A stretch of DNA of 41,998 nucleotides from an uncultured bacterium (GTDB lineage Bacteria; DYJV01): positions 1 to 41,998 of the forward strand of contig CAZIZE010000015.1 of assembly GCA_964543655.1 (NCBI GenBank), read 5' to 3'. The notes under the pieces are model-generated. The model saw only the letters and a list, made by a program, of their open reading frames with translations, had not been told where the DNA came from and made no database searches. Numbering within the stretch: the first letter of the stretch is position 1; each line of letters opens with the position of its first letter. Made by a program: the position numbers and the translations under genes. Below, piece by piece: positions 10,804 through 37,093 of this stretch.

Positions 10804-13800
10804 CTAATGTATGGTTCCAAATAGCCCGTCTATTTCATTAATTATCTGCTCATCAGTGTAATGTTTAATGGTTATTGCACCTGTAGGGCATTTAGAGTTG
10901 CAAAGGCCGTCACCTTTGCAAAGAACTGGATTAACCCTTGCTTTTTTAACTTTTTTAACAGTAACCAGCTCTAACGCATCGTAATTGCAGACTTCCACAC
11001 ATGCTCCGCAACCCATGCATTTATCCTCATTAATACTGCACACAGCACCGGAAACAGTTACTTTGTCATGGGAAATCAGGGTGATTACTCTTCCTGCTGC
11101 TCCATAAGCCTGATTAATAACTTCCTGAATATGTTTTGGATAGTGTGCTGAGCCACACAGGAAAACGCCATCTGAGCTAAAATCAACAGGTCGTAATTTT
11201 ACATGTGCTTCCTGAAAGAATCCATCAGGACTCAAACCAACTTTAAAAAGTTGTGCTATTTCTATATTTTCATCTGAAGGCACAACAGCAGTTGATAATA
11301 TAATAAGATCTGCATCTATTTCAAGGTTTTTACCAATAATAGGTTCATAAACATAGAGTTTAAAATTATCTGATTCCATTTTAACTTCTGGCTTGTTTTC
11401 CAGCTCATATCTAATAAATCTTACATTCATTTCAGCAGCTTTTCTGTAATAATCCTCCCTGTAACCATACATTCTCATATCTCTGTAAAGAATGTATACA
11501 TCCATATCAGGATTAATTTCTTTAAGCTTTATTGCGTTTTTTACAGCCTGTGAGCAACAAATTCGTGAGCAGTAATTTCTCTCCTCATTTCTGCAACCAA
11601 CGCACTGAATCATTACAACTGATTCAATATTGGATAAAGATTCTTCATTAATAGCAATTTTTGATTCTAATTCAGATTGGGTAAGTACATTTTCACTTTC
11701 ATTGTAAAAATATTCATCAGGTTTATACTCAACAGACCCTGTTGCAATAACAGTAGCACCATGAATAATATCTTTTGTAAATCCATTAGATTTTATTTTT
11801 GTAGAAAAATTTCCAATATAGCCTGATGCCTCTTCAATTGTTGCATTAGTGTAAACATGTATTAAAGGATGCTTGTAAACATCTGCTTTAAGCTGGTTTA
11901 AAAATTTTTGAACATCAAACCCTTCAATAGTGTAATAGAGAGAGTTTGCTTTACCACCAAGCTCTTTCTCCTTTTCAACAAGATAAACATCAAACCCTTG
12001 CTTAGCAATGCTAAGGGCTGTTGTCATTCCAGCAACTCCGCCACCAAGAATAAGAACATTTTTATTAACAGAAAGCTCTATTTCCTGTAATGGTTCAAGG
12101 TGGAGTGCTCTTGCAAGAGACATTTTAATTAGATCTTTTGATTTTTCTGTAGCTGCTTCCTTCTCTTTTGAGTGAACCCATGAGCAATGCTCTCTAATGT
12201 TTGCCATATCTACAAAGTATTGATTTATGCCTGCTTCTCTTAATGAATCTTTGAAAGTAGCTTCAAGATTACGTGGACTGCAAGCTGCAACAATTACCCT
12301 GTTTAAATTTTTCTCCTTAATAACATCGGTAATTTCTTGTGCAGAACTTGTTGAGCATGAAAAGAGCTGCTCCTGAGCATGAACAACATAGGGTAAAGTT
12401 TTGCAAAATTCCACAACATGTGGTACATCAACAACCCTACCAATATTAGCACCACAATGACAGACAAATATACCAACTCGTGGCTCCTCTCCTGAGACAT
12501 CCCTTTCAGGTGGATACACTCTATCCTCTGTTAATTTATTTCGTCTGAAATTGAGATACTCTCCACATTGAGATACAGCACCACTTGCAGTAAAAACAGT
12601 TTCTGGAATATCAACAGGTCCCTGAAAAGCTCCTGTAACAAATATTCCTGGTTTTCTGGTTTTTATTAAATTAAAATTTTCAGTCTGACAAAAACCATGT
12701 TCATTTAATTCTATTCCAAATTTTTCAGCTATTATTTTAGCATCTTTTGCTGGTGTAAGACCAACACTTAATACCACCATTTCAAATTCTTCCTCTTTAA
12801 CCCCTTCATTTGGGGTAGAGTATCTTATTTTAATATTTTTATTTTCAGGATTTTCACCTGTTATAGTAACGTAGCTTCTAATAAATCTAACATCAGGAAG
12901 ATTTTTAGCTCTTTCATAATATCTTTCAAAATCTTTTCCATAAGCTCTGATGTCATTATGAAAAATAGTACATTGCACATCTGGATAGTGATCTTTGGTA
13001 AGCATTAATTGTTTCTGAGTATATGTACAACATACAGCAGAGCAGTAACTATGTGCTCCTTCCAATACTTGACGTGAACCAACACATTGAATCCAGGCAA
13101 TTTTCTTTGGATGTTTTAAATCTGAAGGTCTTAAAATTTCCCCTTCATAAGGGCCAGTTGAGCTTAAAATTCTTTCAAAATCCATACTTGTAACAATATT
13201 TTGATATTTACCATAACAGTACTCTTCACGAAGAGTTGGGTCAAATGGTTCAAAACCTGTTGAAAAAATAATAGATGCAACATTTACCTCAAGCTCTTCT
13301 TCGTGCTGTGTAAAATCTATTGCACCATTTTCACAAACAGCTTCACAAATACCACATTTATTTTCTTTTAGATAGAGGCAGTTATCCTCATCTATGTAGC
13401 TAATCAGTGGTATTGCCTGAGAAAAGTATATATGCACAGCTTTATTCATATTAAGTTCCTGATTAAATGGATCAGGAATCTTTATTGGGCAATATTCAAC
13501 ACAGGTGCCACAACCAGTACATTCATCCTCTATAATGTAACGTGGCTTTTTACGGAGCTTTACTTTAAAATCTCCATTTGTGCCCTTAACATCTTCAATC
13601 TCTGTATATGTTAACACTTCAATATTTTGATGCCGGCCGACCTCGACCAGTTTTGGTGAAAGAATTCAGATGGAGCACTCATTTGTTGGAAAAGTTTTAT
13701 CAAGTTGAGCCATATGCCCACCAATAGCTGGTAATTTCTCAACAAGATAAACTTTAAAACCAGAGTTAGCAAGGTCAAGAGAGGCTTGAATGCCACTGAT

Positions 13801-13887
13801 TCCACCACCAACAACCATTACATCGCCAAAATTTCTCTCTTTTAATTTCTCTATTAGAAGTTGACCTTCTATAGATTCAATTTTCAC
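10804..13887 (-). CDS. bamE: HdrA-like double-FAD Fe-S subunit of class II BCR, selenocysteine at codon 74 (1027 aa)
   Basis: ORFs 13666..13887 and 10804..13617 are one frame: GGGISG...[14 protein letters not shown](13666-13668)[12 protein letters not shown]. The TGA is at the conserved HdrA Cys. Two HdrA modules are present (QCVGSR/CSAVCC; QCVGCR/CSRICC; second GGGVAG). Confidence 0.93.
13633..13650 (-). promoter_or_regulatory. bacterial SECIS-like hairpin of bamE
   Basis: CUGGUCG-AGGU-CGGCCGG starts 16 nt after the UGA. It is a GC-rich patch built from codons that are rare in this AT-rich DNA. Confidence 0.8.
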
Positions 13888-13914
13888 TTTAAACTACCTC
13901 CACTCTTTTCTATC

Positions 13915-19543: not shown

Positions 19544-20842
19544 ATGAAAGTATTAGTTGTTGGAGGTGGTGGCAGAGAGCATGCACTTGTATGGAAGATT
19601 AGCCAGAATCCTGATGTGAAAAAAATATACTGTGCACCTGGTAATGCAGGTATTTCAAAGCATGCTGAATGTGTAAATATTGCAGCTTCAGATATAGATG
19701 CGCTTTTAGATTTTGCTAAACGTAACAATATTGATATTACAGTTGTTGGACCAGAGGACCCTCTTGTTAGGGGAATTGTTGATATTTTTGAAAAAAATAA
19801 TTTGAAAATTTTTGGACCTACTAAAGATGGGGCTATTCTTGAAGGGAGTAAGGTGTTTTCTAAAAATTTAATGAAAAAGTATAATATTCCAACTGCTGAT
19901 TTTAAAGTTTTTGATAATTTGAACTTGGCAAAGGAATATATAAGAGAAGTTGCATACCCTGTGGTTGTTAAAGCTGATGGCCTTGCAGCTGGAAAAGGTG
20001 TGATTATTTGCAAAAATTATGAAGATGCGGAAAAAGCCCTGATAGATATTATGGATAAAAAGATTTTTGGTGATGCAGGAGATAAAGTAGTGATTGAAGA
20101 TTGTCTTGTTGGAGAAGAAGCATCATTTATAGCTATTACAGATGGAGAAACAATTTTACCATTTGATTCTTCTCAGGACCATAAGCCAGTTTTTAACAAT
20201 GATGAGGGGCCAAATACTGGAGGAATGGGTGCGTATTCTCCAGCACCTGTTGTTACAGAGGAGATTTATGGAAAAATTATGGATAGGGTTATGAAACCAC
20301 TTTTAAATGGTTTTAAGCAGGAAGGAATAGATTACAAAGGAGTAATTTATGCTGGTTTGATGATTGTAAATGAAGAGCCATTTGTTCTTGAATTTAACTG
20401 TAGGTTTGGTGACCCGGAAACACAGCCTTTACTTACAAGATTAGAATCTGATTTAATTGAAATAATAAATGCCTCAATTGAAGGTAATTTAAAAGATGTA
20501 GAAAATAGTGTTAAATGGAGTCAAGATGCTTCTGTGTGTGTTGTAATGGCCTCTGGTGGTTACCCTAAAAAGTATGAGAAAGGGATTGAAATAAATGGCC
20601 TTGATGAAGTTGATAAAATGGAAAATGTAATAGTTTTTCATGCAGGAACAAAGTTTCATAATGGTAAAATTGTAACTAATGGGGGAAGGGTTTTAGGAGT
20701 TACTGCTCTTGCACCAACTATTAATACAGCAATTGATAAAGCGTATGAAGCTGTTAATAAAATTTCATGGAATAATGTTCATTTTAGAACTGATATTGGC
20801 AAAAAAGCTTTAAAATATATAAATGGAGCAAATAATGAGTAA
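19544..20842 (+). CDS. purD: phosphoribosylamine--glycine ligase
   Basis: GGGGREHAL, KADGLAAGKGV, GPNTGGMGAYSP, EFNCRFGDPETQ, GGRVL. Confidence 0.97.
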   Translation: MKVLVVGGGGREHALVWKISQNPDVKKIYCAPGNAGISKHAECVNIAASDIDALLDFAKRNNIDITVVGPEDPLVRGIVDIFEKNNLKIFGPTKDGAILEGSKVFSKNLMKKYNIPTADFKVFDNLNLAKEYIREVAYPVVVKADGLAAGKGVIICKNYEDAEKALIDIMDKKIFGDAGDKVVIEDCLVGEEASFIAITDGETILPFDSSQDHKPVFNNDEGPNTGGMGAYSPAPVVTEEIYGKIMDRVMKPLLNGFKQEGIDYKGVIYAGLMIVNEEPFVLEFNCRFGDPETQPLLTRLESDLIEIINASIEGNLKDVENSVKWSQDASVCVVMASGGYPKKYEKGIEINGLDEVDKMENVIVFHAGTKFHNGKIVTNGGRVLGVTALAPTINTAIDKAYEAVNKISWNNVHFRTDIGKKALKYINGANNE

Positions 20843-21098
20843 AGATGGTGATAATAGTGAAAATTTGGAAAAATTAAAAAAAGCTTTAAAAATAAGAGAT
20901 ATGATATTTTATGTTAGCATTGCTATAGGTTTTTTATCAATGGCTGCTGATTTGATGATTACTAAAAATATTTTTAAGCATGTTGGAGAGCTTATGATTT
21001 TAAGTATTTTTGCATTTGGGTTTGCAATTTATAATGAAGGTGCAAGAAAAAGATTAAAAATTAAAATAGAGAAGATAGAAAATGGAAAGCAAACATAA
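20835..21098 (+). CDS. small hypothetical membrane protein (two predicted TM helices)
   Basis: Two hydrophobic stretches; overlaps the purD stop and the next start. ATG 20835 follows GGAG. Confidence 0.7.
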   Translation: MSKDGDNSENLEKLKKALKIRDMIFYVSIAIGFLSMAADLMITKNIFKHVGELMILSIFAFGFAIYNEGARKRLKIKIEKIENGKQT

Positions 21099-22974
21099 TA
21101 GAATAAAACAGGTTTTAAAGGAATTCCCTTTTATAAGGGATATTGATGATTTTAGGATTGAAGAGCTTTGTGAGCGAACAGATATTTTAAGTTTTAAAGC
21201 TGGTGATATAATTTTAAGAAAAGGTGAGCCATGCCACAAAGGTCTGTATTTAATAATTAAAGGAAAGATAGAGGTTGTTAATCCAGATACTGGTCTCTCC
21301 TACTTTGTTGAAAAGAATGATATAGTTGGAATTACAGCCTTTATTGGAAGAAGGACTTATGCTGTTACAGCTACATGTGTTGAAGATTCAGAGGTTATTT
21401 TTCTGCCAGATATTTGAATTTACAGATTAATTGGGGAGTATCCCCAATTTAAAGATTTTTTTCAGAAAAAAATAGATGAAAGATTATCCCAGATTAAAGT
21501 TGACACAAGGGAAAAAATTTATACGCCAACATATAGACCAATTGGTTCTTACATGACTTCTCCTATTATTTCTATTCCACTTGATACACCTTTTTTGCAG
21601 GCAGTAAAAAAGATGGGAGAGAACAAAGTTGGCTCTCTTGTAGTTATTAATAGCAGTAATGAACTTGCAGGATTAATAACTTCTAAAAATTTAATTCATA
21701 AATTTTTTGATAAATTTCCAGAAAAAAAGGTTAATGAATTAACAGCTAAAGATTTTATTGATAGATTTCCTGTGCATTTACCACCAGAGTATCCGCTTCT
21801 TGAGGCTTTGTATGAAATGCAGTCTAAAGATGAAGATTATGCTGTTGTATGTGAAAAATTAACTCCTGTGGGGATTATTTCTTCAAAAGATATTTTAAGA
21901 ATTCTTTTTAAAAGTGCCACGCTATATGAAACTCATATTGATAATGCTGATAATTTGAACGACCTTAAGGAAATCCATAAAAATTTGTACAAAATAGCAG
22001 ATAATTTAATAGAAAATACCCGTTATATTTCAGATGTGTTAACAATTCTATCTTCAATCCATCTAAAAATTCAGAGAAAAGTTTATGAAATTTCAGCAAA
22101 AGTTTTTTTTGAAAATAACAGATTAAGAATTAATGTAAAAAATATTCCCCATGCATTAATAGTAATGGGTAGTGGTGGTAGAAGGGAGATGTCCCTTGAT
22201 CCTGATCAGGACAATGGATTTATAATATCAGATAAAATTACAGATATTGAAAAAGAATATTTAAACGAATTCGGGAAGATGCTTGTGGAGAATTTAGCTT
22301 ATGTAGGATATGAGAAGTGTGAAGGTAATATTATGGTGACCAATCCTGAAATGAGTAAAACTTTATCTGAATGGAAAAAGGATATTAGTGAATGGATAGA
22401 AAATCCAGGTAAATGGGGAGTTAGATGGTCAACGATTCTTTTTGATTTTGATTGTCTTGTTGGTGATGAAAAGTTGGTTTGGGAATTAAGAGAGTTTATT
22501 TTAAAGAAAATTTCTTTAAGACCAGCATTTTTAATGCAAATATTACAGAGTGATTCTAACAAAGCAGTGCCAATTTCTATATTTGGAGGTTTTATTACTG
22601 AGAAAAAAGGTAAATATAAAGGGAAATTTAATTTAAAAAGAACAGGATTGATGTTTATAGTGGATATAGCAAGGGTTTTTTCACTTTATAAGGGAATTTC
22701 AGATTTAAATACAAAGTCAAGATTAAAGCATCTTGAGCGATTAAATGTTTTATCTGAGGAAACTGTTCAAAATGTGCTTGAAGCATATGAAATTATGACA
22801 AATATTATTCTTTCACATCAGATTGAACAGGCTAAAAATAATGAAGAGTTGGATAAGTTTATTAATCCAAAATCTTTGTCAGTGTTTAAACAGGAAAGGT
22901 TAAAGGAATCTTTAAAAACAGTTTCGAAATTTTTAGATATAGCAATGGGATATTTTGGAGGTTCTCCATTTTAA
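21082..22974 (+). CDS. cNMP-binding + CBS-pair + GlnD/GlnE-like nucleotidyltransferase (DUF294-type) protein with in-frame TGA at codon 112, probable selenocysteine (630 aa)
   Basis: ORFs 21082..21417 and 21553..22974 are in one frame, joined by 45 sense codons (IYRLIGEYPQFKDFF...RPIGSY). NTase motif GSGGRREMSLDPDQDNG is intact. A perfect hairpin follows the TGA. Confidence 0.85.
21429..21449 (+). promoter_or_regulatory. SECIS-like hairpin after TGA 21415-21417
   Basis: AAUUGGGGA-GUA-UCCCCAAUU: perfect 9-bp stem at +12..+32, with G as the first loop base (+21). Confidence 0.7.
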
Positions 22975-23673
22975 ATGATTAAAAGTTTTTTTAGTAAAAT
23001 TTTACAAAGCAAACCTGACGATTCAGGAAAGATTGATGATCCACTTGTGCTCTATGTTAGAAAATTATTAACACCTAAGAGTATAAATAATTGTCTTAAA
23101 ATAAATCTGGAAAATATTACTTTTACAGTAATTGATACAGAAACCACGGGGCTTGATAAAAAGAAGGATAAAATTTTAAGTATAGCAGGGGTAAAAATTA
23201 AAAAATTTCGAATAGTCAATATTTACAATGTTTTTGTTGATGCTGGAGTGCCTATACCAGAAGAATCAAAAAAGTTTCATGGGATTGATGATGAGCATTT
23301 AAAGGATAAGCCAAAATTAGTAGAAATTTTTCCAGATTTTTTAAAATTTTTAAAAGATACAGTAATAGTTGGTCATCACATTAAATTTGATGTTGAAATG
23401 ATAAATGTAGAACTTGAAAAAAATTATGGCGTCAAGCTTCCAAACTATATAATTGATACAGGACATCTCTACAATTTTTTAACAAACACAGAGGAGAAAG
23501 TTAGCCTTGATTATTTAATGAAAGAGTTTCATGTAAAATGTGAAGATAGGCATTCTGCTCTTGGAGATGCAATTGCCACAGCAGAAGTTTTTATAAAATT
23601 AATTTCAAAATTTGGAAATAAATTAAGTACTCTTGATGACCTTTATCAGAATAAACTTTTAAAAAGAATTTGA
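22975..23673 (+). CDS. DEDDh 3'-5' exonuclease (DnaQ/Pol III epsilon-like)
   Basis: IDTETTG, GHHIKFD, IDT, HSALGDA. Confidence 0.92.
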   Translation: MIKSFFSKILQSKPDDSGKIDDPLVLYVRKLLTPKSINNCLKINLENITFTVIDTETTGLDKKKDKILSIAGVKIKKFRIVNIYNVFVDAGVPIPEESKKFHGIDDEHLKDKPKLVEIFPDFLKFLKDTVIVGHHIKFDVEMINVELEKNYGVKLPNYIIDTGHLYNFLTNTEEKVSLDYLMKEFHVKCEDRHSALGDAIATAEVFIKLISKFGNKLSTLDDLYQNKLLKRI

Positions 23674-23674
23674 G

Positions 23675-25567
23675 GTGGTAATGAAATTTACAGAAGAAGA
23701 TTTAAACATACTTTGCAGAAAGTTTAAAAGGGGAAGCTTTACAATAGATGAGTTTAAAAAGCTTCATGAAGAGTACAGTAGTGATTTTAAAAATTTTTTT
23801 GATAAATTAGCTAAAAAATATATTGAATGGAACAAAAATTATTGGGAAGTTCTTGATGACTCTAATTTCCCTTTTTTTAAGTGGTTTACAAAGGGAAGAC
23901 TTGATATTTGTTACAATATTTTTGAAAAATTTCTTGATACACCAAAGAGGAATAAAGCAGCTTTTATCTGGCAGGGTATTGACAGAACAGAGAAAATTTA
24001 TACATACCAGACACTTTTTTATGAAGTGGGTAAATTATCCTATGGGTTAAAAGAATTAGGTGTTAAAAGAGGTGATAGGGTTTTTATATTTATGCCAAAT
24101 TTACCAGAGTTAATTATAGCTGTGCTGGCATGTGCAAAAATTGGTGCTGTGCATGTAATTTACAATTATAAATTTTCTTCAGAGGCTCTTCTTGAAAGAA
24201 TTTTAGATTGTACTCCAAAGGTTATTCTTACAGCAGATGGAAGTTATGAGGAGGGTTACTATAAGGTTAAATCAAAAATTGACAAAATTTTTAACCAGAT
24301 TGAAAGTATAGTAAAGTATGTTATTGTTGTGAAAAGAACTGAAAGAAAAATTAAAATGAAACCTCTGAAAGATATTTGGTATCATGAGTTAATTGATTCT
24401 ATTCCATTTGATCATGCTAAACTTCAGAAAAAAATTTATGCTGAATCAGAAGACCCATTATTTATAATTTATGCAGCAACCAACCAGATTACTCCTAAAG
24501 GTCTTATTCATACAACTGCTGGATATTTATTATGGATATTTTTTACAACTAATCTTATCTTTGATATAAATGAAACAGATACTTTCTGGTGTACCTTTGA
24601 TTTTTCATCAATAGTTACTTTAAGCTATGGTATTTATGGGCCATTATCTCTTGGTGGTACAATCTTTCTATTTGAAGGTGCAATAGATTATGAAGATGCA
24701 CATAGATTTTATGAAATAGTAGAAAACTATAAAATAACAAAATTGTACACTCATCCAAATATATTGAGAAACTTGATGAATGCAAATTTAAAGAAAAAAA
24801 TAGATGGTGATACGCAATCTTTAAAATTAATAGCCACTACTGGTGAAACAGTTAATTTAAGATTATTTGAATGGATTTACAAAGTTCTTGGTTACAAAGT
24901 TACTCCTGTAATTGATATTTGGTTTCAAACAGAATCAGGTGGTGCATTAATATCCTCCATTCCATGTCTTGTTGCACCAAAGCCAGAATCTATAGCAAAG
25001 CCACTTCCAGGAGTTGATGTAGCTATTGTTGATTCATTTGGAAATGAGCTTTCTAATGATAATACAGGAACTATTGTAATAAAAAAGCCGCATCCAGCCT
25101 TTATACGCAATATATGGAATGATCCTGATACTTATAAAAATTATTACTGGAAAAGACTTAATGAAAAAAATTATTTTATAACAGGTGATAGTGCCTATAT
25201 TGATAAAGATGGGTATATTTTCTTAAAAGGTAGAATTGATAACATTATAAATATAGAAGGAAAAAGGATAAGTTTGCTTGAAATAGAATCCACTATACTT
25301 AAAATAAAAGATATAGAGGAATGCTCAGTTATATCGTATAATCATCCACGTAAAGGTTCTATTCTTGCTGCTTTTTGTGTACCTGAAAAAAATATTTCAG
25401 AATGGCAGATTACAGAACTTGAAAATGAAATAAAAGAGAAAATAAAAAATAACCTTGGTGATTGGATAAACTTGCAGGAGATTAGATTTACTCAAGTTCT
25501 TCCAAAATCTCCATCAGGAAAGGTTTTAAAAGACCTGCTTAGAGAAATAGCGTTAGGTATGGAATAA
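23675..25567 (+). CDS. acetyl-CoA synthetase-like protein with degenerate AMP-binding P-loop
   Basis: Acs architecture (FFKWF, RNKAAFIW, DIWFQTE, TGD, GRID, PKSPSGK), but YAATNQITPKG replaces YTSG(S/T)TGxPKG. Confidence 0.8.
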   Translation: MVMKFTEEDLNILCRKFKRGSFTIDEFKKLHEEYSSDFKNFFDKLAKKYIEWNKNYWEVLDDSNFPFFKWFTKGRLDICYNIFEKFLDTPKRNKAAFIWQGIDRTEKIYTYQTLFYEVGKLSYGLKELGVKRGDRVFIFMPNLPELIIAVLACAKIGAVHVIYNYKFSSEALLERILDCTPKVILTADGSYEEGYYKVKSKIDKIFNQIESIVKYVIVVKRTERKIKMKPLKDIWYHELIDSIPFDHAKLQKKIYAESEDPLFIIYAATNQITPKGLIHTTAGYLLWIFFTTNLIFDINETDTFWCTFDFSSIVTLSYGIYGPLSLGGTIFLFEGAIDYEDAHRFYEIVENYKITKLYTHPNILRNLMNANLKKKIDGDTQSLKLIATTGETVNLRLFEWIYKVLGYKVTPVIDIWFQTESGGALISSIPCLVAPKPESIAKPLPGVDVAIVDSFGNELSNDNTGTIVIKKPHPAFIRNIWNDPDTYKNYYWKRLNEKNYFITGDSAYIDKDGYIFLKGRIDNIINIEGKRISLLEIESTILKIKDIEECSVISYNHPRKGSILAAFCVPEKNISEWQITELENEIKEKIKNNLGDWINLQEIRFTQVLPKSPSGKVLKDLLREIALGME

Positions 25568-26584
25568 ATGCGTTTGGAGGCTGAAATGGATAAAAAAATT
25601 TATTTTGTTTCATCTGGTTCTTATGTGCCTAAAAATATAATGAAAAATGATGATTTAAAAAAGTATATTGAAACCTCTGATGAATGGATTTATACCAGAA
25701 CTGGTATTAAAGAGAGAAGAATAGCAGATAAAGATGAAGCAGCTTCTGACCTTGCATATGAAGCTTCTAAAATAATACTTGATAGAGCCAAAGTTTTTTC
25801 AGAGGAAATAGAGCTGATTGTTATGGCGACAATTACTCCTGATACCTGTTGTCCAAGTGGTGCTAATTGGCTTGAGGCTAAATTAGATGCTGTTAATGCT
25901 GTTTCCTTTGATGTTACAGCTGCATGTACAGGATTTCTTTTTGCTCTTTCAGTTGCAATGCAATATTTAAGAACAGGGGCATTTAAAAATGCACTTGTTG
26001 TTGCATCAGAGGTTATGAGCAGAGTTGTTAATTGGTATGATAGGGATACATGCATATTGTGGGGTGATGGTGCAGGAGGATGTTTTTTAAGTGTTGAAGA
26101 TAGATTTGAAGGAGCCCCAATTTTAAAGGAGGTTTTTATCCATACTGATGGCAAAAATGGGCAAAATCTCCTAATGCCAGGAGGTGGCTCTAAAACCACA
26201 CCTATTTCACATGAAAGTGTAGATAAAAAGCTTCATTATTTAAAAATGATACATGCAAGCGATTCAATGAGAGTTGCTGTTAGAAGATTCTCAGAGAGCT
26301 GTTTTCAGGTAATGGAGTATTTTAACCTCAAAGCAGAAGATATATCTCTTGTAGTTCCTCATCAAGCTAATTATAGAATTATAAAAAATGTTGCAAAAAA
26401 AATAAATATTCCTTTAGAAAAATTCCATTTAACCATAGAAAAATATGGTAATTCATCCTCTTCATCAATGGCAATTGCTCTTGATGAAGCAATTGGTGAG
26501 GGAAGGGTGAAAAAGGGAGACAATATTATTTTAACAGGTTTTGGAGGTGGATTAACATGGGGAAGCGCACTGATTCAATGGTAA
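25568..26584 (+). CDS. fabH: beta-ketoacyl-ACP synthase III
   Basis: AACTGF, HQAN, YGNSS catalytic triad; GFGGGLTWG. Confidence 0.9.
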   Translation: MRLEAEMDKKIYFVSSGSYVPKNIMKNDDLKKYIETSDEWIYTRTGIKERRIADKDEAASDLAYEASKIILDRAKVFSEEIELIVMATITPDTCCPSGANWLEAKLDAVNAVSFDVTAACTGFLFALSVAMQYLRTGAFKNALVVASEVMSRVVNWYDRDTCILWGDGAGGCFLSVEDRFEGAPILKEVFIHTDGKNGQNLLMPGGGSKTTPISHESVDKKLHYLKMIHASDSMRVAVRRFSESCFQVMEYFNLKAEDISLVVPHQANYRIIKNVAKKINIPLEKFHLTIEKYGNSSSSSMAIALDEAIGEGRVKKGDNIILTGFGGGLTWGSALIQW

Positions 26585-27741
26585 ATGAAAATTTTAAAAA
26601 AAAGTTAGAGGAGATAAAAATTTTTGCTGAAAAAGAAGTTTTGCCAAAGGCAAAAGTTATTGATTTTAAAAATGAATTCCCCTATGATTTATGTGAAAGA
26701 ATGCATCATTTAAAGTGCTTTTCTTTAATAATTCCAAAAGAGTTTGGTGGAGAAGGATTTGGCATTTATGAAACAGCTAAAATTATAGAAACATTATCTT
26801 ATGCTTCAGCATCAATTGGATTGCTTGTAATATGCCATACTACTGGTTTATTACCAATATTGTTAACAGGTAGTAGAGAGCAGAAAGAGAGATTTTTTGG
26901 TGAGGTTATTGAAAATAAGAAATTATTTGCATTTGCTCTTACAGAAGCAAAAGCTGGGTCTGATGCAGCGTCAATAAAATCAATTGCCAAAAAAAGTGAT
27001 AATGGAGAAGGATATATAATAAAAGGGATAAAGGTTTTTGTTACAAATATTGGTATTTCAGATTTTTATACTATTTTTGCAAAAACAGAAGCACGTAAAG
27101 GTTCAAGAGGTATTAGCTGTTTTGTAATAGAAAAGAGCTGTGATGGTTTTGAAATTTTATCTGTTGAAGAAAAAATTGGTATGAGAGGGATTCCATGTGG
27201 AAATTTAAAATTGAGAAATGTTAAAGTTTCAAAAGATTGTTTAATAGGTAGAGAAGGGGAAGGTTTTAAAATAGGGTTAAACACATTGAATAATTCTCGA
27301 CCATTTGTTGCAGCTCAGGCTATAGGTATAGCTCGTTATTCTTTTAACAGGGCAATGGTTTATGCTGCTAATAGAAAGCAATTTGGCAAACCTATTGCCA
27401 AGCATCAGGCTGTTATGTTTAAATTATCAAAAATGGCTATGAATATTGAAGCAGCAGAATGCTTAACTGAAAAAACATGTAAAATGCTTGATAAAAAGGA
27501 CCCGGCAAGTAGTAAATTTTCTGCAATGAGTAAAGCTTTTGCAACTGATGTTGCAATGGAGACCACTATTGACACAATGCAAATTTTTGGTGGTTATGCT
27601 ACAAATCGAAATGGTGATATTGAAAGATTAATGAGGGATGCAAAAATTACACAGATTTTTGAAGGTAGTAATGAAATTCAGAATCTTGTAATAGGAAATC
27701 AATTATACAAGGAAGCAGGGATATTAGAAAAGATTGGTTAA
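26578..27741 (+). CDS. acyl-CoA dehydrogenase
   Basis: [39 protein letters not shown] 26578 overlaps the fabH stop. Confidence 0.9.
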   Translation: MVNENFKKKLEEIKIFAEKEVLPKAKVIDFKNEFPYDLCERMHHLKCFSLIIPKEFGGEGFGIYETAKIIETLSYASASIGLLVICHTTGLLPILLTGSREQKERFFGEVIENKKLFAFALTEAKAGSDAASIKSIAKKSDNGEGYIIKGIKVFVTNIGISDFYTIFAKTEARKGSRGISCFVIEKSCDGFEILSVEEKIGMRGIPCGNLKLRNVKVSKDCLIGREGEGFKIGLNTLNNSRPFVAAQAIGIARYSFNRAMVYAANRKQFGKPIAKHQAVMFKLSKMAMNIEAAECLTEKTCKMLDKKDPASSKFSAMSKAFATDVAMETTIDTMQIFGGYATNRNGDIERLMRDAKITQIFEGSNEIQNLVIGNQLYKEAGILEKIG

Positions 27742-34644: not shown

Positions 34645-36840
34645 TTAAACTTTTTCAATGGTTACAAAAGTATTTTCATAACCATGAGCATGTGATATTG
34701 GATCAAAAGCAGGTTTGGTTATCAGTAGATTGTCATAAATTCCTTTTCTATAAGTTCTGATAAATCCCTTTGATAATCTTCCAAATGCATGTGCTGCAAA
34801 TACCAGTCCCTGCTTAATCCTTTCAGTAACATAGGCTTGTGCTTTATCTGTTTTTACCTTTCCAGAGACAAGCCTAATATAGTCTCCATTTTTAATGTTG
34901 AATTTTTTAGCATCTTCTGGATTTATCCATACCATATTTACAGGATAAAGTTGTAGTAGCCATTTGTTGTTTTGCGTTCTTGCATGGGTATGCATGGAGA
35001 CTTTTCCAACAGTGAGACGCAATGTCCCTTCTGGTGGTTGGGGAGCTCTATTATATTCTGGAAGAGGTGGAAAACCATTTTCTTCAAACTCTTTTGAAAA
35101 GAGTTCTATTTTTCCAGATGGAGTTTTAAAGTAAAGCATTTCTAAATCATATTCATAAAGTGGATAGTTTTTAAATTCTATAAAACCTTTCTTTTTTAAT
35201 TTTTTATAGCTCAGTTTTGATCTTTTTAATCTTATTTTGTTTACTTCAATTATATCTTTGAAATCAAAATAATCATCAAGACCAAGTTTTAACCCAAGAT
35301 TTTTAGCTATCCACCATCCAGGTTTTGTGTCGTATAATGGATCTATTGCTTTTTCACAAAGTGAAACAAAAGGATATGGCCATCTACCTATTCTAAGATT
35401 ATCATCTCTTTCAAGGTATGTTGCCTCTGGTAAAATTACATCAGAGTAAAGAGCTGTTTCTGTGAGCATTGTCTCTATGGTTACAACAAGAGGAATTTTT
35501 TTGAGCATATTTATTATCTTAGGAGTTTGCGGCATGTTGGTAAGTAGATTTGTACCGTAAACAAATAGAGCCTTTACTTTACCATTTTCAGTTAATTCTG
35601 GTAGAGAGTTTAAGAAGCCTTCAAATTTATCTCCTAATGGATAAGCTGATTTAACTCCAGCACCATCAACTCTCCTGGCTTTAGGATATCTTGGATGAGG
35701 ATAACCTTTTATCCTTTTCTTTAATGGAAGAAAAAAACCACCTTTCTTTCCATAATTGCCCATTAAGGCATTTAAAATTGCTATTGCTCGTGTTGCCTGA
35801 GTTTCAAGACCATATCTTGCGTTTCTTCTTGGTGGCATTACAAAGCATGAAGGTTTGTTAGCAGCTAACTCTCGTGCTACCTGAACAATATCAGACTCTG
35901 GAATTTCAGTTTCTTTAGAAGCCCATGATACAGAGTATTTTTTTATGAATTCTTTTACCTGCTCAAAACCTTCACAAACTTTTTCCACAAAATTTTTATC
36001 GTAAAGTTCTTCATCTATAATAACTCTTATAAGTCCAAGAGCTAAAGCAAGGTCAGTACCTGGTTTTACTGGTAACCATTTATGAGCTTTTGCTGCTGTA
36101 GTGTTAAATCTTGGATCTACAACAACATATTTCCCACCTTTTTGAAGAAATTTTACAAATTTTCTTGTTTCTCCAACCTGAAGGGCTTCAAGATTGTTCC
36201 TCCCAAAATTTATAATATATTTTGCGTTCTCAATGTCATATAGAGGAAAACTACTTAAATGATGTCCAAAAGTGACATGCCATGCCACTTCTCGTGAACC
36301 CTTTCATTGAGTCCAGGAGGCAGCGTAAATATTTCTGCTACCTAAAGCTTTGATTAAATATTTAAAATGAGCACCTCCATATCCATGTGATGCAAGGTGT
36401 ATTTTTTCTGGTTCATTTTCCATTACTGGTTTTAGCTTTTTCGCTATATATTCAAAAGCTTCAGACCAGGAAACTTTTTTCCACTTATTTGAGCCTTTTT
36501 CACCTGCTCTAATTAATGGATATTTAACTCTATTTTCATCATAAAGGGCTGCTATTCCAGAATTGCCTTTTGCACAAATTTTCCCATCATTTAATGGATG
36601 GTTAGGAATGCCTTCGATTTTCTTTACAACACCATTAACATTTTTAACTTTAACTCCACATGTCCAGAAACACATATTGCATGAGGTAAAAGTCCATTTA
36701 CCTTCTTCATAAGGTTTGTAAAAATCTTGCTCAACACTTCTAATAGGTGTTGCTTCTAACTCTTTTAACAGTGCTGGAGATATGGATAAAGCAGCAGTTG
36801 ATAAAGCTGTGGCTTTTAAAAAAGACCGCCTTGTTAACAT
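34645..36840 (-). CDS. Tat-exported Mo/W-bisPGD polysulfide/thiosulfate-reductase-like catalytic subunit, selenocysteine at codon 179 (731 aa)
   Basis: TRRSFLK Tat motif and CNMCFWTC...CAKG FS0 cluster. ORFs 36304..36840 and 34645..36288 are one frame: ASWTQ-TGA(36304-36306)-KGSREVAW, at the metal-ligating Cys position of PsrA-type enzymes. Also LPEATYLE, KTPSGKIEL, HTHART. Confidence 0.9.
36268..36292 (-). promoter_or_regulatory. SECIS-like hairpin of the reductase catalytic subunit
   Basis: AGAAGUGGCAU-GGC-AUGUCACUUUU, an 11-bp stem with the loop at +23..+25 after the UGA. Confidence 0.8.
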
Positions 36841-37093
36841 ACTATTCTCCTTTTGTTAGATTTTAAAATTTTTTAGCTTTCTTAATTTTAATGATAATTT
36901 GAATTAGGGTAGCTTATTACTAAAAAGTGTTTTTTGATGTTTGGTGGTGGCGGGGCATAATACAAGTTAATTTTTTAATTTTAAATATTAATAATAGATG
37001 GTGTAAATACTACAAATGTTATTTTTTTATAAAAAATTGTAAAATGCCCCTTCTTAAATAAATTAAAAAATAATTTCAGATGAAAATTAATTT

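Follow-up and report, generated by a model that had tools for sequence, protein, structure and literature searches.

Can the sensor domain of a bacterial signalling enzyme carry selenocysteine (Sec)? This question is raised by a gene in a 41,998-nucleotide (nt) stretch of DNA from an uncultured bacterium (GTDB lineage Bacteria; DYJV01), namely positions 1 to 41,998 of the forward strand of contig CAZIZE010000015.1 in GenBank assembly GCA_964543655.1, hereafter the window. At positions 21082–22974 of the plus strand, the window contains a single reading frame with TGA 21415–21417 as its sole internal stop. Readthrough of this codon yields a product of 630 residues, in which the codon stands in the context ...SEVIFLPDI-U-IYRLIGEYP.... 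Among prokaryotes, the great majority of known selenoproteins belong to the redox enzymes, the carriers of metal or sulfur and the thioredoxin-fold proteins. An earlier note on this DNA had proposed a new selenoprotein with Sec in the cyclic nucleotide-binding (cNMP) domain of a cNMP-CBS-DUF294 protein, and this proposal is supported by the conservation of the TGA, the Cys-containing homologues, the hairpin behind the TGA and the Sec machinery of the genome. Sequence comparison makes it very likely that TGA 21415–21417 encodes Sec.

The gene and its domains

Pfam analysis of the readthrough product revealed the domain order cNMP_binding, CBS pair, DUF294 and DUF294_C, all four above the Pfam cut-offs, and the cNMP_binding match (residues 37–117) spans the TGA. 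The features of the gene are as follows.

21082..22974, plus strand: putative selenoprotein gene, 630 residues (cNMP-like, CBS pair, DUF294, DUF294_C), defined by frame, Pfam, orthologues and selection
21415..21417, plus strand: TGA probably read as selenocysteine, residue 112, with TGA in 6/6 orthologues and Cys in 10/17 Deferribacterales loci
21190..21432, plus strand: cNMP-binding-like sensor domain, residues 37–117, with the putative Sec near its C-terminal end; PF00027, 49.7 bits, above the gathering score (cut-off) of 27.5
21541..21906, plus strand: CBS pair, about residues 154–275; PF00571 in two stretches (best 154–207), 70.2 bits, together with AlphaFold secondary structure and Foldseek CBS-pair matches
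21985..22941, plus strand: DUF294 nucleotidyltransferase (NTase), residues 302–442, and DUF294_C substrate-binding domain, residues 482–620, of GlnE/DrrA-like fold; PF03445 115.2 bits and PF10335 121.5 bits

The Pol-beta-type NTase motif G-S...D-x-D, formed by G363, S364, D375 and D377, is invariant in 33/33 aligned homologues. Open reading frames (ORFs), Pfam and alignment thus bear out what the earlier note had described: a single frame that is interrupted solely by the TGA and gives 630 residues with all domains and an intact NTase motif. The NCBIfam search returned no specific family for the protein, and its weak CBS- and cNMP-type matches are all far under cut-off.

One gene or two

Does the TGA end a gene or interrupt one? 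Taken as a true stop, it would leave a split gene, coding for a free 111-residue cNMP protein and a 473-residue CBS-nucleotidyltransferase that starts at ATG 21553. The ORFs of genetic code table 11 have exactly these sizes (21082–21417, 111 residues; 21553–22974, 473 residues), Met158 is a possible start, and TGA serves as an ordinary stop in the rest of the genome. All public gene calls agree with the split. At an identity of at least 59%, 17/17 protein clusters correspond to the C-terminal piece of 470–473 residues, and 12 N-terminal clusters of 104–113 residues were found, 11 of them ending in FLPDI; every public gene call seen for the clade splits the gene in two. Such split calls render the domain architecture, and one putative member of the selenoproteome of an uncultured phylum, invisible in databases.

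Against the split stands the comparison of orthologues. The genome search took in 41 genomes and gave full-length matches in six (G000–G005, where G000 is the genome of the window), which are all the species genomes examined for this uncultured phylum and belong to 2 families and 5 genera. Each of the six matches has exactly one internal stop, a TGA, and it lies at the same column in 6/6 orthologues, within the context FLPD[IV]-TGA-[IV]YRLIGE and at protein identities of 58–87%. Synonymous sites are saturated between the six orthologues, with a proportion of synonymous differences (pS) of 0.53–0.90. For codons 113–157, the 45 codons from the TGA to the next ATG, the proportion of nonsynonymous differences (pN) is 0.06–0.38, which is well under pS in 15/15 pairs and resembles that of the flanking segments; purifying selection thus acts on both sides of the TGA. 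Frame 0 of this stretch is open in 6/6 orthologues, the other two frames hold 2–8 stops, and the same 45 codons are homologous to the corresponding stretch of uninterrupted homologues. Codon 113 is ATT, GTT or GTC in the six orthologues, so that no canonical restart codon follows the TGA. Met158 is invariant in 33 aligned sequences, unsplit homologues included, which marks it as an internal residue, and the stop column is occupied by Cys in the nearest relatives. Given an open and selected frame, no restart codon and a Met158 that is invariant even in unsplit homologues, the ribosome must pass the TGA. We consider a split gene very improbable.

An artefact or a decayed gene is even less probable. 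Beyond the presence of a stop codon, nothing speaks for a sequencing or assembly error or for a recent pseudogene: the frame is intact and under purifying selection, and the TGA occurs in six genomes of different assemblies. The codon at 21415–21417, on which the proposal hangs, also reads TGA in contigs of other assemblies. Metagenome contig L130 keeps it with 1 difference in 1893 nt, and the 642-nt contig X2, from a run of another study, covers 21082–21538 with a single difference at 21475 and none listed at 21415–21417. A metagenome scan with a single-protein query gave one locus, near-identical. The same TGA in six genomes and in independent contigs excludes error and recent decay, to which we assign a negligible probability.

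The residue at column 112 in homologues

We compared 81 distinct loci, comprising 6 TGA loci, 17 Deferribacterales loci, 41 distant loci whose alignment covers the column and 17 loci whose alignment does not. The Deferribacterales loci, 40–47% identical to the protein, carry Cys (10), Tyr (4), Ser (2) or Thr (1) at column 112, and none of these nearest full-length homologues has Trp, Arg or Gly there. The residue varies among the 41 distant loci, none of which has Cys or TGA. The prediction that relatives would have TGA or Cys at this position therefore held for 6/6 phylum relatives and for 10/17 Deferribacterales loci, respectively. In the protein alignment of 33 rows, the column holds Sec in 6 rows, Cys in 11/17 Deferribacterales-type rows and variable residues in 10/10 distant rows.

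In a FastTree phylogeny of the 33 rows rooted on the 10 distant rows, the Sec forms make up a single clade (support 1.0), and their sister is a clade of five members that all have Cys (0.996). On this tree, the two clades are a Sec/Cys pair of the classical type, with Cys ancestral in a small Deferribacterales-type subfamily. In the sister clades, the ancestral Cys lies within the conserved motif P-[DE]-x-C-[IV]-Y-[KR]-L. Furthermore, the joint subfamily is marked by His52 (21/23 rows) and Tyr114 (23/23 rows), both of which are absent from the 10 distant rows. Judging from the alignment, residue 112 is not a family-wide catalytic residue. The DUF294 family itself is large, as 697 clusters (50% identity) match at E ≤ 1e-30.

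Two further proteins of the Deferribacterales-type clade, P0053 and P0054, are C-terminal pieces with 47% identity, and P0054 begins at the equivalent of Met158. Contig ends may have truncated them, or they may point to additional interrupted genes.

A hairpin of SECIS type behind the TGA

Bacterial Sec insertion depends on a selenocysteine insertion sequence (SECIS) in the message, and a candidate lies just downstream of the TGA.

21429..21449, plus strand: SECIS-type hairpin with a 9-bp stem (21429–21437 / 21441–21449), a GUA loop (21438–21440) and a distance of 20 nt from UGA to loop, identified by folding, conservation and codon use

Its arms, AAUUGGGGA (21429–21437) and UCCCCAAUU (21441–21449), form 9 perfect pairs. 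The stem begins at +12, 11 nt downstream of the TGA, and the loop G lies at +21, in agreement with the perfect 9-bp hairpin with a GUA loop at +12..+32 that had been read from the window before. For the 66-nt fold, z = -2.66, and 3/200 shuffles fold equally well. The bacterial SECIS (bSECIS) model as given in section 5 of PMC13188914 has a loop of 3–9 nt, a stem of 4–16 bp, a G in the first two loop positions, 16–37 nt from UGA to loop and a minimum free energy (MFE) of -7.5 kcal/mol or lower. The hairpin in this genome agrees with the model throughout (loop 3, stem 9, G first, spacing 20, -10.9 kcal/mol). In a genome with a G+C content of 29.7%, a perfect hairpin of bSECIS geometry at -10.9 kcal/mol or lower follows 6/4000 random TGAs and 0/224 of the TGAs that end ORFs of at least 200 codons.

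In all six orthologues, the hairpin lies inside the bSECIS geometry limits at a spacing of 17–20, with a core of 5–9 bp kept, and the core GGGGA-NNN-UCCYC is present in 6/6. RNAalifold on the six sequences retained just a 6-bp core and an A/U-rich outer helix. The MFE of the segment +1..+57 is -7.5 kcal/mol or lower in 5/6 orthologues, with -7.4 in the sixth and -12.6 in the genome of the window. A geometry-constrained hairpin scan, used instead of plain MFE, found a fitting hairpin at -6 kcal/mol or lower in 3/6 Sec forms, 1/17 Deferribacterales and 0/41 distant homologues. The idea that the hairpin is kept in TGA versions only thus stands as far as all 6/6 TGA forms retain it, whereas one of the 17 Deferribacterales homologues has a comparably stable one.

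Codon choice within the stem is more telling. Column 118 is the sole one of 22 invariant Gly columns to use GGG in at least 5/6 orthologues, and column 119 is the sole one of 14 invariant Glu columns to use GAG in at least 5/6 (here 6/6). The third base of codon 120 is T in 6/6 orthologues though the residue is Tyr, Asp or Ser, and Pro121 is encoded by CCC or CCT in 6/6. Genome-wide, the shares of GGG, GAG and CCC among the codons for Gly, Glu and Pro are 9.6%, 29.4% and 5.5%, respectively, and the rare codons GGG118, GAG119 and CCC121 are placed exactly in the stem. For a putative SECIS, codon choice in the stem is a better argument than conservation of the core or covariation.

A role of the hairpin as a terminator was also considered and rejected. 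It was not flagged in the terminator scan, and the four terminator-like sites in 20700–23800 lie elsewhere.

Selenocysteine machinery and other TGA-bridged genes

Is the genome equipped to insert Sec? Both selB (390.7 bits) and selA (604.6 bits) are present above cut-off, and a tRNA-Sec with anticodon TCA was detected at 78.9 bits. TGA ends 125/945 long ORFs of this genome, hence the genetic code is not reassigned. Of the selA, selB, selC and selD set that the earlier note expected, this assembly yielded selA, selB and the tRNA-Sec, but no selD.

The whole genome was screened for TGA-bridged frames that have a hairpin of -6 kcal/mol or lower; this gave 12 hits, among which the hairpin of the DUF294 gene ranks second. 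The accepted genes have a spacing of 18–23 and a loop of 3–5 nt. FdhA (TIGR01591, 878 bits) and a GSU2204-family (seleno)protein (NF041027, 389.5 bits) are TGA-bridged and over cut-off; the Sulf_transp/YedE-like and HMA-domain genes are candidates only. In this genome (G000), these genes with SECIS-type hairpins lie as follows.

C28, TGA 5755 (locus L135): TGA-bridged FdhA gene
C83, TGA 13646 (locus L137): TGA-bridged GSU2204-family gene
C94, TGA 16300 (locus L133): TGA-bridged Sulf_transp/YedE-like candidate
C7, TGA 7647 (locus L138): TGA-bridged HMA-domain candidate, with a GUA triloop in its hairpin as in that of the DUF294 gene

We judged five hits to be false: two (cytochrome, CheB) have the TGA upstream of the evident start, and three are low-complexity frames without a family. 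Taken together, the genome holds at least two well-supported further selenoprotein genes.

The window itself contains two more in-frame TGAs on the minus strand, both in genes that are among the 12 hits. The HdrA-like flavoprotein with Fe-S domains (10804–13893, minus strand), which the earlier note had called bamE, has TGA 13668–13666 in a CxxU context, a match to NF040770 of 975 bits (below the cut-off of 1100) and a hairpin with spacing 22, loop 4, stem 7 and -9.1 kcal/mol. The PhsA/PsrA-like molybdopterin oxidoreductase (34645–36855, minus strand) has TGA 36306–36304 in frame, a match to NF012032 of 514.6 bits (below cut-off) and an 11-bp hairpin with spacing 22 and -10.0 kcal/mol. The likeness in geometry that had been noted between these two hairpins and that of the DUF294 gene was confirmed, with a spacing of 22 in both vs 20 here.

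Several observations count against recoding by Sec. In this genome, the best score for selD is 49 bits vs a cut-off of 125, and tblastn with a same-genus SelD gave no match. Three orthologues have a weak hairpin (-2.9, -3.4 and -4.4 kcal/mol), and only 2/6 orthologues reach -7.5 kcal/mol with the isolated perfect stem. Covariation in the 9-bp stem across the six sequences is not significant, as 291/500 shuffles are as good, and the plain MFE of +1..+45 fails to separate the groups, with means of -7.8 (Sec), -6.8 (Deferribacterales) and -8.6 (distant). The conserved residues G-E-x-P lie in the same stretch as the stem, whose conservation is therefore partly at the protein level. A scan of the whole window against Rfam at gathering thresholds gave 0 matches, and the sequencing-run search listed no RNA run with the stretch.

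The missing selD and the weak hairpins in 3/6 orthologues would suit a readthrough of the UGA without selenium, by a near-cognate tRNA (Cys/Trp) or by leaky termination, with the hairpin only slowing the ribosome. This assembly is, however, 94.3% complete in 102 contigs, and selD is found in 5/5 relatives with the same TGA, each copy with a TGA of its own, so that an assembly gap is the likely reason for its absence. selA, selB and the tRNA-Sec are in place, and the hairpin shares its geometry with the genome's FdhA, HdrA-like and PhsA-like genes and fits the published bSECIS model. Moreover, if the product had Cys, it would be difficult to see why six lineages retain TGA instead of TGT or TGC. 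We regard readthrough without selenium as highly unlikely, and recoding by Sec as the preferred reading.

The sensor domain and the surroundings of residue 112

Where does the putative Sec lie in the protein? An AlphaFold model was computed from the 33-row alignment (predicted local distance difference test, pLDDT, 86.1; predicted template modelling score, pTM, 0.78). It has strands within residues 34–109, followed by helices 110–119 and 121–138. Residue 112 is the third residue of helix 110–119, right after strand 103–109, as expected from the earlier placement of Sec112 in helix B after strand 8. In the model, Sec112 is thus placed where the β-barrel meets the αB/αC helices, at the β8/αB hinge. 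In other cNMP-fold proteins, it is through the αB/αC helices that the sensor domain passes on its signal.

The phosphate-binding cassette of a functional cNMP domain has a conserved Glu and Arg. Here, the cassette (residues 84–97, window 21331–21372) is two residues shorter, and Ile84 aligns with the PKG-type Glu. Position 84 is Ile, Val or Leu in 23/23 subfamily rows, and Arg91 is present in 4/33 rows. Given such a degenerate cassette, the binding of a cyclic nucleotide is doubtful and the ligand may be a different one.

Which residue could pair with Sec112? Cys51, the partner proposed before, is not backed by conservation, since only 4/6 Sec forms have Cys there and each of the 17 Deferribacterales-type homologues has Tyr. 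Cys30 (21169–21171) and Cys257 (21850–21852) are Cys in 6/6 Sec forms and in 0/27 other aligned rows, and Cys30 also occurs in 12/12 N-terminal fragment clusters; Cys413 is invariant in all 33 rows. From this pattern, Cys30 and Cys257 may be partners of Sec112 or clade markers only, and Cys30 is a more likely partner than Cys51.

We searched for known structures related to the catalytic half. For the NTase and DUF294_C half, Foldseek gave GlnE 1v4a (E 3.6e-8), GlnE 3k7d (1.4e-7) and DrrA 6yx5 (8.9e-7). The GlnE Pfam family PF03710 and the NCBIfam GlnE/GlnD models gave no match to the protein. In the literature searched, no DUF294-type cNMP-CBS-nucleotidyltransferase with a tested function was found.

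The operon

The gene stands at the head of a tightly packed operon, followed by genes for a DEDDh exonuclease, an acetyl-CoA-synthetase-like (Acs-like) enzyme, KAS III and an acyl-CoA dehydrogenase (22975–27741). The first two are placed as follows.

22975..23673, plus strand: RNase_T/DEDDh exonuclease gene, whose start abuts the stop of the putative selenoprotein gene; PF00929 119.1 bits
23675..25567, plus strand: Acs-like AMP-binding enzyme; PF00501, PF13193, PF16177

The exonuclease gene lies directly downstream in 6/6 Sec-form genomes, in 21/58 distant loci and in 0/17 Deferribacterales loci. Of the 5 relatives' loci that extend far enough, 4 have an Acs-like gene downstream of the exonuclease; it was not found in L003, where a contig end cuts the locus, and in L006 it lies on the other side of the gene. 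The pair of a DUF294 gene and a DEDDh exonuclease, often followed by an Acs-like gene, recurs in distant, mostly gammaproteobacterial loci (among L071–L125), and this recurring module suggests a shared pathway. Upstream, a 91-residue ORF (20823–21098), hydrophobic in its middle part and unmatched in Pfam, shares 17 nt with the beginning of the putative selenoprotein gene.

A putative model

The comparative evidence shows, at the level of alignments and of a predicted fold, the recoding of the TGA, the single gene, the relation of Cys to Sec and the position of residue 112. These findings enable us to propose a putative model. Initially, the hairpin at 21429–21449 would recruit SelB together with the Sec-tRNA(UCA), upon which the ribosome would make one protein of 630 residues instead of halting after 111 residues. 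The product would be a sensor-enzyme composed of a degenerate cNMP-fold domain, a CBS pair, a GlnE/DrrA-like nucleotidyltransferase and a HEPN-like substrate-binding domain, in which Sec112 would have replaced the Cys that marks the Deferribacterales-type subfamily. The selenol of Sec112 could then serve as the reactive sensing group, either redox-active, as a selenenyl-sulfide or selenenic acid, or as a contact to a metal or ligand. Finally, the state of the selenol would set the hinge and thereby gate the nucleotidyltransferase. As a whole, a Sec-recoded sensor-enzyme of 630 residues with the selenol as the proposed sensing group is the best explanation of the locus, and we hold it with considerable confidence.

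The last steps of the model are far less certain than the recoding. A switch at Sec112, be it redox- or ligand-driven, is a tentative suggestion for the function of the residue. The more far-reaching version is somewhat more doubtful still: in it, the protein would be the first Sec-based sensor in signal transduction, with a centre of Sec112 and Cys30 and/or His52 that would gate the GlnE-like nucleotidyltransferase and couple redox or selenium status to the exonuclease, Acs and fatty-acid genes of the operon. The functional part of the model is opposed by the residues of the homologues. Cys occupies column 112 in just 3/129 family representatives (50% clustering), and some close homologues carry Ser, Tyr, Leu or Thr there, from which it follows that residue 112 is dispensable for fold and catalysis. 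There is also no CxxU or UxxC motif around Sec112. In addition, the six Sec forms are one clade, and the co-occurrence of Cys30 and Cys257 with Sec may thus reflect shared ancestry only.

Could Sec be inserted without any sensing chemistry? The UGA and its SECIS might act as a selenium-supply checkpoint for the full-length regulator, and perhaps for the downstream operon. Such a role would fit a residue that is not catalytic, as the 3/129 representatives with Cys indicate, and a gene that heads a tightly packed operon. It is at odds with the ancestral Cys of the sister clades within the motif P-[DE]-x-C-[IV]-Y-[KR]-L, which points to a function of the side chain, and no polarity mechanism is evident, given that the hairpin was not scored as a terminator. 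We judge a supply checkpoint improbable, and retain the sensor-enzyme with a reactive selenol.

If true, the finding would extend the uses of selenium to the sensor domain of a multidomain signalling enzyme. The Deferribacterales homologues would offer a natural Sec/Cys pair for probing a reactive chalcogen at the hinge of the cNMP fold, and the finding would give a handle on the large uncharacterised DUF294 family.

Comparison with known systems

The family does not appear among the known selenoproteins catalogued so far. In the 2026 catalogue of Table 1 of PMC13188914, which lists 119 prokaryotic selenoprotein families or subfamilies, no entry has a cNMP, CBS or DUF294 domain, and this absence from the 119-family list agrees with the earlier supposition that the family is new. 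The literature search found no link between selenoproteins and DUF294, and nothing relevant that connects cNMP, CBS or NTase to selenocysteine. In deep-Sep (PMC12013277) and BSepDB (PMC13326102), the main texts mention no nucleotidyltransferase, CBS, cyclic nucleotide or DUF294, though their supplementary family lists could hold the family; the main texts of the reviews PMC9312934 and PMC13188914 mention no nucleotidyltransferase, CBS, cyclic nucleotide or COG2905. The nearest entry by name is the FmdB-family 'putative regulatory protein', the only one in Table 1 of PMC13188914 to be called 'regulatory'. This small protein of zinc-ribbon type has a UxxU motif, and neither its fold nor its architecture is related to that of the DUF294 protein.

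The Cys forms of the Deferribacterales share with the Sec forms the four-domain architecture, a length of 620–646 residues and the motif around column 112. Examples are P0010 from Deferribacter autotrophicus ('CBS domain-containing protein' at NCBI, 50% identity) and P0028 from Denitrovibrio ('putative CBS domain and cyclic nucleotide-regulated nucleotidyltransferase'). The best uninterrupted protein has an identity of 50%. They differ in having Cys (or Ser, Tyr, Leu or Thr) in place of Sec, and in lacking Cys30, Cys257 and a hairpin at the aligned place; 1/17 reaches -6 kcal/mol, at another spacing. They also differ in their surroundings, as the exonuclease gene is downstream in none of the 17 loci.

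With respect to the catalytic half, the closest group is that of the AMPylases and uridylyltransferases GlnE, GlnD and DrrA, among which GlnE (1v4a, template modelling score 0.56 on target; 3k7d) and DrrA are the best structural matches; the G-S...D-x-D NTase motif is shared. Passages of PMC3710099 group DUF294_C with the C-terminal HEPN-like domains of GlnD/E. Unlike these enzymes, the present protein has cNMP-like and CBS sensor domains, and with a sequence identity of 12–14% and no GlnE Pfam match, the likeness is at the level of the fold only.

CRP/FNR/CooA-type sensors provide a precedent for a cNMP fold that senses something other than a cyclic nucleotide. By analogy, the present sensor domain combines a cNMP fold, here with a degenerate cassette, with a putatively reactive Cys-type residue at the junction of barrel and helices. 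It has no cluster-binding Cys motif, and the output is an enzyme instead of a DNA-binding domain.

The closest parallel in recoding is found in bacterial genes with a SECIS inside the ORF, of the FdhA type, including the genome's own FdhA, GSU2204-family, HdrA-like and PhsA-like genes. As in these, the in-frame UGA is followed by a stem-loop with a small loop 18–22 nt from the UGA and a G in its first two positions, Cys homologues exist, and selA, selB and tRNA-Sec are present. The DUF294 gene differs in the motif P-D-[IV]-U-[IV]-Y-R-L, which provides no CxxU, UxxC or metal-cofactor context, and in its host protein, a signalling enzyme and not an oxidoreductase or a metal or sulfur carrier. 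Compared with these systems, the gene represents a well-supported candidate for a new selenoprotein family that would use the ordinary recoding mechanism of bacteria, its unusual trait being a Sec in the sensor domain of a signalling enzyme.

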